Below are positions 4,983 to 17,181 of a stretch of DNA of 64,000 nt, in pieces. The stretch is taken from assembly GCF_003018255.1 (NCBI RefSeq), contig NZ_CP027440.1; one strand, given 5' to 3'. The number at the start of each line of letters is the position of its first letter. The stretch's first letter is position 1. Made by a program: the position numbers and the translations under genes. This DNA is from Escherichia coli. Its GTDB lineage: Bacteria > Pseudomonadota > Gammaproteobacteria > Enterobacterales > Enterobacteriaceae. A model generated the notes under the pieces. The model worked only from the letters and a program-made list of their open reading frames with translations. It was not told where the DNA came from and made no database searches.

Positions 4983-6374
4983 TTATGCCACTGTCAACTG
5001 CTGAATTTTTTTCTCGCGGCGGATTTTGCGTTCTTCCATCACCGCCACTATCGCCATCAGGCAGATACAACCAATCGCGGCGATATCCAGCGCGGCGAAG
5101 GTGCCTGCCCAGCCGGTAAGGCCAAATACCGGCGTCCCATCGGCAATCATTCCCAGACCTAACTTGGCAAAGCTGTCACCAATCAGGTAAGCGAAGGTGC
5201 CTTTAATACCATCGGCAGCGCCAATCGCTTTTTTAGGTACAAAGCCAACAGCAGCCACACCAATCAACAATTGCGGGCCAAAGACCAGGAAACCCAACGC
5301 AAAGAGAGAAGCCAGGTAGATATATTCGTTGCTGGCGTGTTGATACACACCGAGCGTGGCGATAATCAGCGCCAGCGCGATACAGGCCACCAGGCCACGG
5401 CGACCGTTCGCCAGGTCAGAGAGCCAGCCCCACAGCAGCGTACCGACCAGCGCACCAGCTTCAAACAGCGTAAAGCCCTGAATCGCCACCGCTTTAGAGA
5501 GTTTCAGTTCCTGGAACGCATACACGGTTGACCACTGGTCGATACCAATACGCACCACATAGAGGAAAATGTTGGCGAAGCACAGCAGCCAGATCACTTT
5601 GTTTTTCAGCACATACTCAACAAAGATCTGCCACTTGGTCATATCGGTAGATTCTGTCTCTTTGTCCTCTTCGCTGATCTCCTCGCCGAACAGCTCTTCA
5701 GCTTTGCCGAGGCCATAAGATTCCGGGGAGTCGCTGCCGTAACGCAGGCCGATAAAACCGACAATCAGCGCGATAATCGACGGGAAAATAAACATGCCGA
5801 TGACATGACCATCGAACAGGTAATTTGCGCCGAACAGCGCCACACCTGCTGCGCCTGCACCACCAAGGTTGTGAGAAATGTTCCAGAAACCGAGGAATGT
5901 CCCGCGTTTACGACGCGGCGTCCATTTGGTGATGGTGGAGTAACTGCACGAACCGCCGGTACTCTGGAAAAAGCCGCTCAAGGCGTAGAAGGCAATCATC
6001 AGGAACAGGCTAACCGAGCCGCTGCCCATACTGGCACTGAAGCCCAGCATACAAATGGCGGACAGAATCAGCATGAACGGCAGGAATTGTTTGGTGTTTT
6101 TGCCGTCGGCGTAGTAAGAAACCAGCGTTTTACCCACGCCATAAGTGATGGAGAAGCCCAGGCCGATCATCCCCAGCTGCGTCATGCTCAACCCGTAGGT
6201 CGAGATCATGTCGTTCTGCGCGATGTTAAAGTTCTTGCGAATCAGGTACATCGTAAGGTAGCCGATAAAGACCACCAGGTAGGATTGCATGAACGGTTTG
6301 AACCACATTTTGCGCCGCACTTCGAGCGGAAGGTCCAGGGTCGGCTTGCGAACCTGGTTTAGGAAAGCCAGCAT
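4983..6374 (-). CDS. uhpT: Hexose-6-phosphate:phosphate antiporter UhpT, 463 aa
   Basis: ORF 4983..6374; MFS organophosphate antiporter sequence ([33 protein letters not shown]...). Confidence 0.95.
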
Positions 6375-6571
6375 GGGTTACTCCTGATTTCCCTTCATAC
6401 TTCAAGCCGCAGGTGCCTTAGCTGCACGCATTCCTCCCGGTCACATAGTTCACTATGCTCCCGGGACTCACGCGTTTGCTGCGTTCCTGCAACTTGAATT
6501 ATTTTGGGAAAGAATTAATGAATGATGGCATTGTAAAAATCAGCAGCAAATCAGGCCTGAGATAGCGTCCA

Positions 6572-6603
6572 GGCAAAACCTGGAAAATTTCTTAGTTTTG
6601 CCG
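6572..6603. promoter_or_regulatory. Perfect 8-bp inverted repeat GGCAAAAC-N16-GTTTTGCC upstream of uhpT; candidate UhpA-binding element
   Basis: Read directly from sequence in the uhpC-uhpT intergenic region; functional assignment is inference. Confidence 0.4.
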
Positions 6604-6629
6604 GATATGAAGTGAAAAGGTGAGATGCA

Positions 6630-7949
6630 TCACGCTTCGCGCGGTGTCTGGGCGTTCAAAAAGGGCAGTAACAGCAGTGCGGAAACCCCGGCGGCAATGG
6701 CGATAACCACAAAAAATCCGCTCCAGTGCCAGGTATCGAGCACTTTCGCCAGCGGCCAACCAGCAAGCGACGCCCCCAGATAAGCAAACAAGCCGACAAA
6801 CCCCGTCGCCGCCCCTGCCGCCTCTTTGTGGGAACATTCTGCCGCCGCCATGCCGATTAACATCTGCGGGCCAAAGACAAAAAAACCAATGGTGAAGAAG
6901 CAGGTTGCCTGCATCACGTAGCTGGCAAATGGCATCAGCCACAGCGAGCCGACTGAAAGCAAAATTCCGGCGGCGAAAATCAAATTCATCGGCCCGCGGT
7001 TGCCGTTAAACAATTTGTCCGAGCCCCAACCCGCTACCAGCGCACCGATAAATCCACCCAGTTCAAACATCGTCACTGCCGTATTCGCCGTGACCAGATC
7101 GACGCCCAGCGTCTCGGACATATACAAATTGCCCCAGTCGTTGATTGCCGCCCGGACCACATAGACCAGCACATAGCAAAACGAAAGCAGCCAGATATAC
7201 GGATTCAGTAACACATATTTGGTGAGGATCTCTTTACGCGTCAGCCCTGCCCCTTCTTGTTGTTGAGCTATCTCCAGCGCGTCGTGCCGCCATTCACCAA
7301 CCGCCGGTAAACCTAACGCCTGCGGGCGATCGCGCAGCCGCCAGCAGAGAAAAATCCCCACGACTATCGCCATACAACCCGCAATCATCATCCCGGCACG
7401 CCAGCCGTAATGCAGCGCGCTCGCTGCCATCACAATGGGAATGAGTGCGCCGCCGACGTTATGCGCCGTGTTCCATAATGCCCACCAACCGCCGCGCTCG
7501 GTACGAGAATACCAGGCGGTTAACAGACGCGCACACACCGGTGAACCCCAGCCCTGGAAAAAGGCGTTCAACACCCAAAGCACGGCAAACGCCCATAGCG
7601 ACGTCGAGAAGCCAAACAGAATGTTGATAATGCCCGTGGCAATAAGCCCTATCCCCATAAAATAACGGGCATTTGAGCGATCGCTGACAATGCCGGAGAC
7701 AAACTTCGACACGCCGTAGGTAATGTAAAACAGGGTCGCTAACAGGCCAATATCGCTACGGCTGAGCACGCCGTTAGCAAGGATTTCTGGTACGGCGGCG
7801 TTAAAACTTTTACGCGTGAAGTAAAACAGCGCGTAACCCAGCCAGATGGTCAGCAGAATATGCCGACGCCAGTAGCGATAGCGGGCATCAATTTCATGTT
7901 TATCAGTCAGTAATGGCGCATCGGCAGGCGCTTTCAGAAACGGCAACAT
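6630..7949 (-). CDS. uhpC: Glucose-6-phosphate sensor/MFS protein UhpC, 439 aa
   Basis: ORF 6630..7952 (MMLPFL...); second Met taken as start. Confidence 0.9.
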   Translation of the reverse strand: MLPFLKAPADAPLLTDKHEIDARYRYWRRHILLTIWLGYALFYFTRKSFNAAVPEILANGVLSRSDIGLLATLFYITYGVSKFVSGIVSDRSNARYFMGIGLIATGIINILFGFSTSLWAFAVLWVLNAFFQGWGSPVCARLLTAWYSRTERGGWWALWNTAHNVGGALIPIVMAASALHYGWRAGMMIAGCMAIVVGIFLCWRLRDRPQALGLPAVGEWRHDALEIAQQQEGAGLTRKEILTKYVLLNPYIWLLSFCYVLVYVVRAAINDWGNLYMSETLGVDLVTANTAVTMFELGGFIGALVAGWGSDKLFNGNRGPMNLIFAAGILLSVGSLWLMPFASYVMQATCFFTIGFFVFGPQMLIGMAAAECSHKEAAGAATGFVGLFAYLGASLAGWPLAKVLDTWHWSGFFVVIAIAAGVSALLLLPFLNAQTPREA

Positions 7950-7958
7950 CATCGAACC

Positions 7959-9464
7959 TTAGACATAACGTTGAGGTAGAGAAACGCTGACACGCGTGCC
8001 GTGCAGACAGGAAATGTGTAATGTGCCACCCAGCGCCGTTACGCGCTCGCGCATTCCGGTAAGGCCAAAACCGTGTTGCCCGGAATCTGGCGGTAAACCG
8101 CTGCCATCGTCTTCAATCACCAGCATTAACCGCTCATCATGCTGCCAGCCTTGCAGCGTGACCGCGCTGGCATCGGCATGTTTCACAATGTTGTTCAACC
8201 CTTCCTGGCAGACGCGAAATAGCGTCACGCGCTGGTTTTCGCTTAACGCTGATTCATCGATTCGCCATTCGAGATGACTGACAATGCCGCGCCCTTCCAG
8301 CTCCATTTCCCGCATCAGTGAGCGGATGGCCTGCTCCAGGGTGAGATCATCCAGCTGGCGCGGACGTAACCGCCCTAACAAGCGGCGCACCGCGTCGTAA
8401 ACGCCCAGCGATAGTTGTTCGATGAGCTGCCCGCTCTGTTTCACGCTGGCGTTATCCGCCGCGAGCCGCTGGACAATGCCCGCTTGAGTTCGAATAGCAG
8501 TAATGGTCTGACCGATATCATCGTGCAGCTCACGTGCCACATCACGGCGCACGCTCTCTTCGGTTTCCAGCAACCGTTCAGCGAGATGCTGATTGCGCGC
8601 CAGTTCCTTTTGCAGCGACTGGTTAAGTTCACGCAACCGCTGGATGCCTGCGCCCAGTAACAACCCTGTCAGACTTTGCACCAGCAGCGAGAGCAATAAA
8701 TCCACCGGATGATCGCGCCAGGTTTGACTGGCGATCAGCGCGATGGCGTTCATCAACGTCGCAATTAGCGCCCCTTGCCAGCCATAGTGCCAGGCCAGCG
8801 CGATAATCGGCAGCGCCAGGCAGAATGGCGTAAAGCGCGACAGTTCGTCCGGCAATCCCAACTGGAGCCAGAGACTGATAACAAACAGCAGCAAGTACCA
8901 GACCAGATGCCGCCCACGCCAGTTGATCGGTTGAGAAACTAACGACGGGCCGAGCGGCAGCCAGGTGTTATTGGCGAGATAGTGCCAGAACACCAGACAT
9001 ATCGGGGCCAGCGTCAGGCCGCCAGTTAAAGTCAGCAACAGCGCATTCCACGACTCTTTGCCGTGCCAAAGCCAGGGCAGCGACTGCAACAACGCCGCCG
9101 CCGTTAATGCCGCCCCTTGTAGCAGCAAGGTGCGCCAGTCACGTTGATGGCGATAGCGCGAGATCAGCGCCACGGGCAGTAACGTCAGTAAACTACCGAT
9201 CATCAATAAGAAGAAATGGGTTAAACCGACCGCCTGCGTTAACCAGTAAATCAGCAGCCACTCCGCGCCCAGCAACACCGGCCAGTATCCGCGCGGGCAT
9301 TGCAGCATTAGCCCCAGACGCAGACCAAACGGAAATAACAGCACCGCCATATCAGGGCGCTCAACCAGGTGCAGGCTGATACTCCACAGGCAAAACCATG
9401 CGGCAGAGAAGATAAAAAAGCAGGCAATAACGGTAATTAAGCGGGAGAACAACGTCTTCATCAC
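7959..9464 (-). CDS. uhpB: Sensor histidine kinase UhpB
   Basis: ORF 7959..9464; N-terminal membrane domain plus HisKA_3/HATPase C-terminus; start overlaps uhpA stop by 4 nt (ATGA). Confidence 0.9.
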
Positions 9465-10051
9465 CAGCCATCAAACATACGGCGCGCCAGTTCAACGTCG
9501 TTACTGACGCCCAGTTTTTCCATCAGATTGGCGCGATGGACGTGTACCGTTTTCGGTGACAAGCCCAGTTCGGCGGCAATCTCTTTCACCGCCATTCCTT
9601 GCGCCAGTTTTTCTGCCACCTGGCGTTCGCGTTTGGTTAGCGGGTCCTGGCGACCGGATGCCAGTTTAATGGCAATATCCGGCGTCAGATAACAGCCGCC
9701 AGTGGCAACCGTATGCACCGCAGCAATGAGTTCATCCGGGCTACAGCGTTTGGAGAGAAAGCCGCGCGCCCCGGCGTTAAGCGCCTGCTCAACCAGCGCC
9801 GGACTGTCGTGAACGGAGAGCATAATTGTCGCCATGCCTTTCGGCAGCTGGCTTAGAAGCTCCAGACCGGAGATATCAGGCATGGAGATATCGCAAATAC
9901 ACACCTGCACACCGCGCCCCGGCAGCCCCGCCAGCGCCTCGCGCCCCGAACCAAACTCGGCAACTACCTGCAAATCAGGTTCCAGCCCCAGCAGCTGCGC
10001 AAAGCCGGAGCGGACGATAAGGTGATCGTCTATAAGGGCAACGGTGATCAT
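9461..10051 (-). CDS. uhpA: Response regulator UhpA (NarL/FixJ family), 196 aa
   Basis: ORF 9461..10051; receiver domain plus LuxR-type HTH. Confidence 0.95.
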
Positions 10052-15687: not shown

Positions 15688-17181
15688 TCAGAACTTCTGT
15701 TTTTTCTCTTCCACCTTCACCCCTTGTGTCGGTAGGCCGGTGTCATAGTCGCGTACTACTGGCGAATAGCCATCTTGTGGGCGTGGACGAAATGCCCCCA
15801 TCCAGCGCGGCTGTGCATCTTTACGCCACGGACGCAGGCTCCATTGGTAACTGCGGAACGGATCGCGAATTTTGTCCATGTAATCCAATAAGGCGTCATG
15901 CATTTTGCGGCGAACGTCGGCAAAACGGATATCATCGATCAGGTTATGCATTTCATTTGGGTCATTACGGCGATCGTAAAGTTCATCACTGGTGAAGAGG
16001 TTGAGTACCAGTTTAAAGTCATCCGTCACCCAGCAACGCACCGGAATAAAACCGCCAAAGCTGTCATGCTCAATCTCGTAGCGGTTAAATTCCACCATTA
16101 CGCCGCGTGGCTCTTTCACGGCAAGGATATTTTCCCCCGGCAGAATCTCTGGTTTTTCAATATCTGCCAGCGCCATCATTGTCGGCAGTAAGTCAATATG
16201 ACTGACTGGCGTATCGACCTGTCGCCGCTCCCCTTGCGGCGAACGGATGATCAGCGGAATGCGGGTGATGTCGTCATACATCGCCGCCCCTTTACTGATC
16301 AGCTTATGTGCGCCCATCATTTCACCATGATCGGAGGTATAAATGACCCACGTATTTTCACGTTGCTCTGGCGTTAAGGCATTGATGACACGTCCGATTT
16401 GGTCATCAACAAAGTCATTGCAGGCAAAATAGAGCGGATGGTGATAAAGCCCGTCATCACCGACTGGCGATGGCATCGCCTGCGCCCATAAGCGGTGATG
16501 TTCCGGTTTGTTCGCCAGGTCATCCTGTGATTTCTCGCCAAGTTCGTAGTAAAAATCAGCGTATTTCTCTAAATACTCCACCGGACAGGTGAACGGGTGA
16601 TGCGGCTCATCATACGAAACCACCATCAGGAAAGGTTCGTCGGCGCGCGCGGGCTGTTGCAGAAAATCTACCGCCCGATTGCTGATGCGGTGCGCCCAGG
16701 TGAAGGTTTCGTCGATATGGTTCGCCTGTAAATCCTCAACGCTGTTTAGGCCATTGCGCCACAGGCTGATCTCTTTTTCCGTCAGTTCGCTAAGGTAGTT
16801 CGCCCCATCGAACCAGTAATCAGCGTCCCACTCCGGCGGACACTCGCCAGTGCCGAAATAGTCATGACCGTCGAGATGCCATTTGCCAATGTAACAGGTG
16901 TGATAGCCCGCATCCTTAAAGTAGCGCCCCATGGTGGAAATGTTTTTACCTGGCGCGACGTTGTTGGTCCACGGGCCGGACTGGTTAGCGTAGATACCGG
17001 TAAACAGCCCGGCGCGCGCTGGTGTACAAACCGGTGAACAGGTATAGGCGGAATTAAAGCGAATACTTTCCGCCGCCAGACTATCAATATTTTGCGTATT
17101 CAGCGGCTTACCGCTATAGCAACCGACCATATTGGTGGCCTGGGTATCGGTCATGATGAACAGAAAATTGGGGCGTTTCAT
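15688..17181 (-). CDS. yidJ: Putative sulfatase YidJ, 497 aa
   Basis: ORF 15688..17181; sulfatase signature region (CSPVCTPARAGLFTG). Confidence 0.9.
   Translation of the reverse strand: MKRPNFLFIMTDTQATNMVGCYSGKPLNTQNIDSLAAESIRFNSAYTCSPVCTPARAGLFTGIYANQSGPWTNNVAPGKNISTMGRYFKDAGYHTCYIGKWHLDGHDYFGTGECPPEWDADYWFDGANYLSELTEKEISLWRNGLNSVEDLQANHIDETFTWAHRISNRAVDFLQQPARADEPFLMVVSYDEPHHPFTCPVEYLEKYADFYYELGEKSQDDLANKPEHHRLWAQAMPSPVGDDGLYHHPLYFACNDFVDDQIGRVINALTPEQRENTWVIYTSDHGEMMGAHKLISKGAAMYDDITRIPLIIRSPQGERRQVDTPVSHIDLLPTMMALADIEKPEILPGENILAVKEPRGVMVEFNRYEIEHDSFGGFIPVRCWVTDDFKLVLNLFTSDELYDRRNDPNEMHNLIDDIRFADVRRKMHDALLDYMDKIRDPFRSYQWSLRPWRKDAQPRWMGAFRPRPQDGYSPVVRDYDTGLPTQGVKVEEKKQKF

Follow-up and report, generated by a model that had tools for sequence, protein, structure and literature searches.

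The 64,000-nucleotide stretch of Escherichia coli DNA analysed here (assembly GCF_003018255.1, contig NZ_CP027440.1; hereafter the window) carries the genes uhpA, uhpB, uhpC and uhpT, all four of which scored far above the curated NCBIfam cut-offs (Table 1). Hexose phosphates enter inducibly through UhpT, which is also one of two ways into the cell for the antibiotic fosfomycin, and this makes the uhpT promoter clinically relevant. The four genes lie on the minus strand, so the 255-bp intergenic region at 6375-6629, bounded by the uhpC stop codon (6630-6632) on one side and the uhpT start codon (6374-6372) on the other, has to be read on the minus strand as well. In 5416 of the 5426 complete E. 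coli genomes, a 401-bp query around the inverted repeat that is the subject of this analysis found a match, in every case between annotated uhpC and uhpT genes. The cognate regulator gene uhpA and the sensor genes uhpB and uhpC are encoded beside the candidate operator. Within the operon, the stop of uhpA overlaps the listed start of uhpB by 4 bp (9461-9464), an ordinary arrangement that is consistent with translational coupling within uhpABC.

A perfect 8-bp inverted repeat had been claimed for this intergenic region by a sequence-only reading of the same DNA, and both the arms, GGCAAAAC and GTTTTGCC, and their location between the uhpC stop and the uhpT start were confirmed. The spacer of 16 nt and the end at 6603 that had been given with it were in error; the arms are in fact 15 nt apart, and the last position of the repeat is 6602. 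Across the window, GGCAAAAC-N16-GTTTTGCC has no exact match, and allowing two mismatches recovers only an unrelated site at 15919. A repeat search extended the element to 15-nt arms around a single central base, with 12 of the 15 positions complementary. The perfect arms are by themselves only slightly out of the ordinary; when the 255-bp region was dinucleotide-shuffled, 6.4% of the shuffles contained a perfect 8-bp inverted repeat with a spacer of 3-20 nt. The significance of the repeat is therefore due to its position and its conservation, and not to the perfection of its arms.

To describe that position, +1 was set at 6523, 7 nt past the -10 hexamer TACAAT, which puts the centre of a CRP/CAP-type dyad at -103.5 and the centre of the repeat at -64 (Table 1). 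The core of the repeat contains an inner dyad, CTAAGA-N5-TCCAGG, held between an A tract and a T tract (AAAA-CTAAGA-AATTT-TCCAGG-TT), and a second dyad, CCTGGA-N6-CTCAGG, follows so closely that its first CC is also the last CC of the flagged repeat. No match to a -35 element was found in the uhpT promoter and a sigma-70 two-hexamer scan found no promoter there; we read the empty scan as reflecting the absence of a -35 element, as expected of an activator-dependent promoter, and not the absence of a promoter. At the upstream end of the region, the CRP 22-mer takes in the uhpC stop codon TGA (6632-6630) as part of its left half-site, CGTGA, so that these bases are under coding as well as regulatory constraint.

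Table 1. Features of the uhp locus and of the uhpT control region, in order of window position. Promoter coordinates are relative to +1 at 6523.
Feature	Window position	Strand	Promoter position	Top-base frequency (78 promoters)	Remarks
uhpT, hexose-6-phosphate:phosphate antiporter, the regulated gene	4983-6374	minus			NCBIfam equivalog NF007107, 832 bits
ERIC-like 123-bp imperfect palindrome in the uhpT 5' leader	6391-6513	minus			Rfam match, fold, copy number
Probable uhpT transcription start	6523	minus	+1		Accurate to ~1-2 nt; deduced from -10 and CRP spacing
-10 hexamer TACAAT	6530-6535	minus	-12 to -7	mean 0.99	Conserved TGATTTT just before
TGATTTT			-19 to -13	mean 0.94	
Spacer			-32 to -20	mean 0.62	
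Second dyad CCTGGA-N6-CTCAGG	6556-6573	minus	-50 to -33		Centre -41.5
Hexamers CCTGGA, CTCAGG			-50 to -45, -38 to -33	0.96, 0.97	
Junction			-53 to -51	mean 0.62	
Flagged inverted repeat GGCAAAAC-N15-GTTTTGCC	6572-6602	minus	-79 to -49		Exact, single match in window; centre 6587 = -64
Conserved core AAAACTAAGAAATTTTCCAGGTT	6577-6599	minus	-76 to -54		
Core AAAACTAAGAAATTTTCCnGGTT, inner 23 bp			-76 to -54	mean 0.94-0.98	
Spacer			-92 to -80	mean 0.71	
CRP/CAP-type 22-mer AAGCGTGAtgcatcTCACCTTT	6616-6637	minus	-114 to -93	mean 0.86	Centre 6626.5 = -103.5; half-sites 6634-6630, 6623-6619
uhpC, glucose-6-phosphate receptor	6630-7952	minus			NCBIfam subfamily NF008661, 864 bits
uhpB, sensor kinase	7959-9464	minus			NCBIfam equivalog NF008649, 896 bits
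uhpA, NarL/FixJ-type response regulator, proposed repeat-binding protein	9461-10051	minus			NCBIfam equivalog NF007685, 442 bits

Conservation was assessed in 80 uhpT loci taken from one-genome-per-species contigs and aligned on the repeat, which yielded 78 distinct promoters from about 20 genera, including Escherichia, Salmonella, Citrobacter, Klebsiella, Raoultella, Kluyvera, Enterobacter, Lelliottia, Leclercia, Cedecea, Buttiauxella, Pantoea, Rouxiella, Brenneria and Dickeya. The blocks from -76 to -54 and from -50 to -33 match the -10 hexamer in conservation, whereas the flanking spacers do not. The outer arm bases of the repeat are variable, both at the GGC of -79 to -77 and at -53 to -51, where TTG stands in place of the consensus TCA, and the terminal CC of the repeat, which belongs to the CCTGGA of the next dyad, is conserved with it. 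Only 5 of 79 loci carry the exact 8-N15-8 repeat, namely four Escherichia and Salmonella enterica subsp. arizonae. Complementarity follows the same division, as the pairs -76/-52 and -77/-51 are complementary in 20% and 46% of distinct 31-mers, respectively, compared with 91-100% of promoters for the pairs -68/-60, -67/-61, -65/-63 and -72 to -74/-56 to -54. Furthermore, the core occurs only once in the window and never in shuffles of it, it sits at a fixed distance from both the CRP site and the -10 hexamer across loci, and the repeat co-occurs with uhpABCT at every locus examined.

These observations bear on the simplest alternative, that the perfect 8-bp arms are a chance palindrome without a function of their own. 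The shuffle frequency given above is compatible with such an origin, as is the poor conservation of the outermost bases (0.71 at -79 to -77 and 0.62 at -53 to -51), but a core that is near-invariant over about 20 genera, fixed in its spacing and absent from window shuffles makes this very improbable as an account of the repeat. For the same reasons the element as a whole is clearly under selection, with the inner 23 bp as the selected part, even if the perfection of the arms is partly fortuitous in Escherichia. More divergent loci retain the dyad but vary its halves. The half-sites of the dyad are swapped in Brenneria (CCGAGAAAATTTCTTAG, AAAACCGAGAAAATTTCTTAGTT; locus L053) and in Dickeya (CCGGGAAAATTTCCTAG, AACCGGGAAAATTTCCTAGTT; locus L081), and a locus titled Aeromonas sp. 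RU39B (L079) carries a perfect 10-bp palindrome with an N3 spacer, GAACTAGGAA-AAA-TTCCTAGTTC. Such variants show dyad symmetry, and not a fixed orientation, to be the property that is preserved; halves that are swapped or made symmetrical in distant species fit a symmetric helix-turn-helix dimer of the NarL/FixJ type and do not fit an asymmetric motif or an RNA stem.

An RNA stem has nevertheless to be weighed, since the repeat could, instead of or besides binding UhpA, form a hairpin 28 nt past the uhpC stop that would terminate or stabilise the uhpABC transcript and keep read-through from reaching uhpT. The flagged arms do pair in the fold of the 56-nt sense RNA (-16 kcal/mol, z = -3.7), with none of 200 shuffles equally stable, and uhpT expression is undetectable in a uhpA mutant (PMC5352689), so read-through from uhpABC must be low. 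In these respects the repeat resembles an intrinsic terminator, being an inverted repeat just past a stop codon that can fold as RNA. It differs from one in having no U-run after the stem on either strand, a 15-nt loop, an A/U-rich stem and a complementarity that is not maintained across species; about 80% of promoters lack the -76/-52 pair, and the conserved bases fall in the would-be loop and the inner stem, the opposite of what is expected of an RNA stem. A terminator scan returned only one weak site, on the plus strand, against 0.7 expected by chance, and an Rfam search matched no family to the flagged repeat. In a compensatory pairing test, 72% of outer-arm cells were paired, but -76/-52 was paired in only 18% and -77/-51 in 55%, most pairs were invariant A:T, and maintenance by compensatory change was not seen. 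No stem being maintained, the terminator reading is unsupported, and the earlier judgement that a simple terminator is unlikely, made from the lack of an adjacent U-run, was borne out by the absence of a T-run on both strands and by a stem that is not kept across species. A hairpin acting on the uhpABC transcript is therefore improbable, and would at most be a secondary function in Escherichia. It is conceivable, though less so than the effect of the leader allele considered below, that the outer arms peculiar to Escherichia allow the operator to serve also as a hairpin at the 3' end of the uhpABC mRNA.

In other species the same 56-nt frame gave a median fold of -13.5 kcal/mol, which stems largely from a different palindrome, TTTTGCCCC-N4-GGGGCAAAA, and so does not discriminate between the readings. 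This palindrome lies in the spacer between the CRP and UhpA sites (-94 to -73) in many genera other than Escherichia, for example at loci L007, L030, L037 and L043, and Escherichia is without it. Its cells were paired in 77% of cases, compared with at most 56% in slid controls, and double changes from C:G to G:C and from G:C to A:T were found. The idea that the Escherichia outer arms are a replacement for the TTTTGCCCC-N4-GGGGCAAAA hairpin was dropped, as the two are not anticorrelated and many promoters have both.

The DNA-binding interpretation can be set against what is known of the same promoter in K-12. From the 3' end of uhpC through TACAATGC, i.e. to -5, the control region is 100% identical to that of K-12 (strain XL1-Blue), so whatever mapping in K-12 showed applies here. 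On the uhpT promoter UhpA occupies two neighbouring regions, the upstream one strongly and the downstream one weakly, its binding is stimulated by phosphorylation, and for CRP there is one site, upstream of these UhpA regions (PMC4790336). For the CRP-cAMP complex the target is an inverted repeat with its centre at -103, some 30 bp upstream of where UhpA binds, and expression of uhpT is undetectable when uhpA is absent (PMC5352689). Binding of UhpA to two regions and of CRP at -103 thus come from the literature, and the anatomy, the spacing, the K-12 identity and the cross-species conservation are observations of the present analysis; the promoter layout found here matches the published architecture, in which CAP at -103 is followed by the strong and then the weak UhpA region. 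Footprints on uhpT from the Kadner laboratory reportedly run from -80 to -50 for the strong region and from -50 to -32 for the weak one, limits that would fit the flagged repeat and the second dyad exactly. The strong or S region of the K-12 promoter is said to have been treated by Merkel (1992, 1995), Dahl (1997) and Olekhnovich and Kadner (1999, 2002). In the site itself there is no difference from this K-12 S region, with which the present sequence shares everything from the uhpC 3' end to -5, the position relative to CRP and the -10 hexamer, and the regulator genes; only downstream of -4 does an ERIC-like element lengthen the leader.

Taken together, position, literature, identity to K-12 and conservation of the core in 78 promoters indicate that the flagged repeat is very probably the upstream, high-affinity UhpA operator of the uhpT promoter. 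The sequence-only reading had put the repeat forward as a candidate UhpA element, and that interpretation stands with some refinement; the genes are on the minus strand, and what is conserved, and presumably recognised, is the inner AAAACTAAGAAATTTTCCnGGTT and not the outer GGC/GCC. The conserved core is likely to be the recognition determinant for a UhpA dimer, and the second dyad at -41.5 presumably represents the weak UhpA region, standing in for a -35 element. A degenerate hexamer-pair pattern derived from the four putative half-sites matched only the S dyad, one uninformative match against 2.1 expected by chance.

Recognition of the repeat by another regulator, for instance as an FNR operator or as a second CRP site, would draw on the gel shift of uhpT upstream DNA that FNR(D154A) produced together with CRP, but no specific FNR footprint was obtained on that DNA (PMC5352689). 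The repeat resembles neither TTGAT-N4-ATCAA nor TGTGA-N6-TCACA, the CRP-type dyad lies elsewhere (6619-6634), and the repeat accompanies uhpABCT in all loci examined, so that an operator for a protein other than UhpA is scarcely credible.

With the repeat read as a UhpA operator, a sequence of events at the promoter can be proposed. External glucose-6-phosphate would be sensed by UhpC and UhpB, leading to phosphorylation of UhpA, a dimer of which would occupy the dyad centred at -64 (AAAA-CTAAGA-AATTT-TCCAGG-TT). This first dimer may then help a second onto the adjacent CCTGGA-N6-CTCAGG dyad, whose position at -41.5 would allow it to replace the missing -35 element and bring RNA polymerase to the TACAAT -10 hexamer. 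CRP-cAMP, bound at -103.5 across the uhpC stop codon, would boost activation. We infer that each dyad takes one dimer, that +1 lies exactly where it has been placed, and that the outer GGC/GCC contributes little to recognition.

Among systems described in the literature searched, NarL is the closest structural analogue. As a dimer, NarL recognises inverted heptamers in a 7-2-7 arrangement beside the -35 position, at -43.5 in yeaR, and at ogt it uses tandem sites at -44.5 and -77.5 that are both needed for full activation (PMC10853779). UhpA and NarL belong to the same NarL/FixJ family, their operators are built of inverted half-sites bound by a dimer, and the tandem arrangement likewise has one site beside the -35 position and a second upstream. 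They differ in that NarL half-sites are TACYYMT heptamers with a 2-bp spacer, whereas those of UhpA are CTAAGA/CCTGGA-type hexamers with spacers of 5-6 bp and flanking A and T tracts. Moreover, unlike the NarL tandem promoters, uhpT has its UhpA centres at -64 and -41.5 and an additional contributing CRP site at -103.5.

The UhpA operator at uhpT is already known as a textbook control element, dissected decades ago, and to find it again is not a discovery and adds nothing new. The comparative gain, a modest one, is that conservation singles out the inner 23 bp as the determinant, along with the equally conserved dyad at -41.5, and not the perfect outer arms. At the level of strains, the gain is a polymorphic ERIC-like insertion in the uhpT leader, so that although the operator is textbook, the allele around it may be new; a literature search found no mention of an ERIC-like insertion in the uhpT leader.

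The allele departs from K-12 from -4 onward, where it replaces a small leader hairpin. The distance from the first base of TACAAT to the ATG is 161 nt here against 43 nt in K-12, and the uhpT leader is about 150 nt long against about 36 nt. The predicted RNA hairpin of the ERIC-like repeat is very stable (-67.3 kcal/mol, z = -6.2) and stops 4 nt short of the Shine-Dalgarno sequence. The element is missing from K-12 and is present in full length at the uhpT site in 736 of 5416 E. coli genomes (~14%). Copies with 73-79% identity are detectable at one to seven places per E. coli genome (median 3), for example beside iscX. It is conceivable, if rather doubtful, that the ERIC-bearing allele with its leader of about 150 nt alters the choice of uhpT start site, the stability of the mRNA or its translation; if true, this would amount to natural variation in glucose-6-phosphate uptake and in fosfomycin entry.

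The leader element shares with the known ERIC/IRU repeats of ~127 bp a length of about 125 bp, an imperfectly palindromic structure and an intergenic but transcribed location, as well as a multi-copy distribution, presence/absence polymorphism and short internally deleted forms. It differs from them in its centre, which has diverged from the primer-derived core; when it was aligned with a 44-nt core reconstructed from the standard pair of ERIC-PCR primers, identity was 26 of 37 aligned bases, a result equalled by 4 of 1000 shuffles. A further difference is that its Rfam match is to a Vibrio family, RF02818 (V_AS5), which it matches end to end with 43.9 bits (E = 3e-8 to 7e-9), short of the 96 set as gathering score.

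Shorter, internally deleted forms occupy the same leader position in Escherichia sp. E1V33 and Escherichia whittamii (loci L002 and L003), and likewise in Raoultella terrigena and Enterobacter sp. 10-1 (L035 and L036). That further species and genera carry these shorter forms points either to a polymorphism of long standing or to a preferred site of insertion. Meanwhile, the end-to-end hit of an E. coli ERIC-like repeat to V_AS5, described in Rfam as 'Vibrio RNA AS5', is in agreement with weak partial matches to Ysr49 and CssrA, and the V_AS5 family may have been built on a copy of a dispersed repeat rather than on a dedicated antisense RNA gene.
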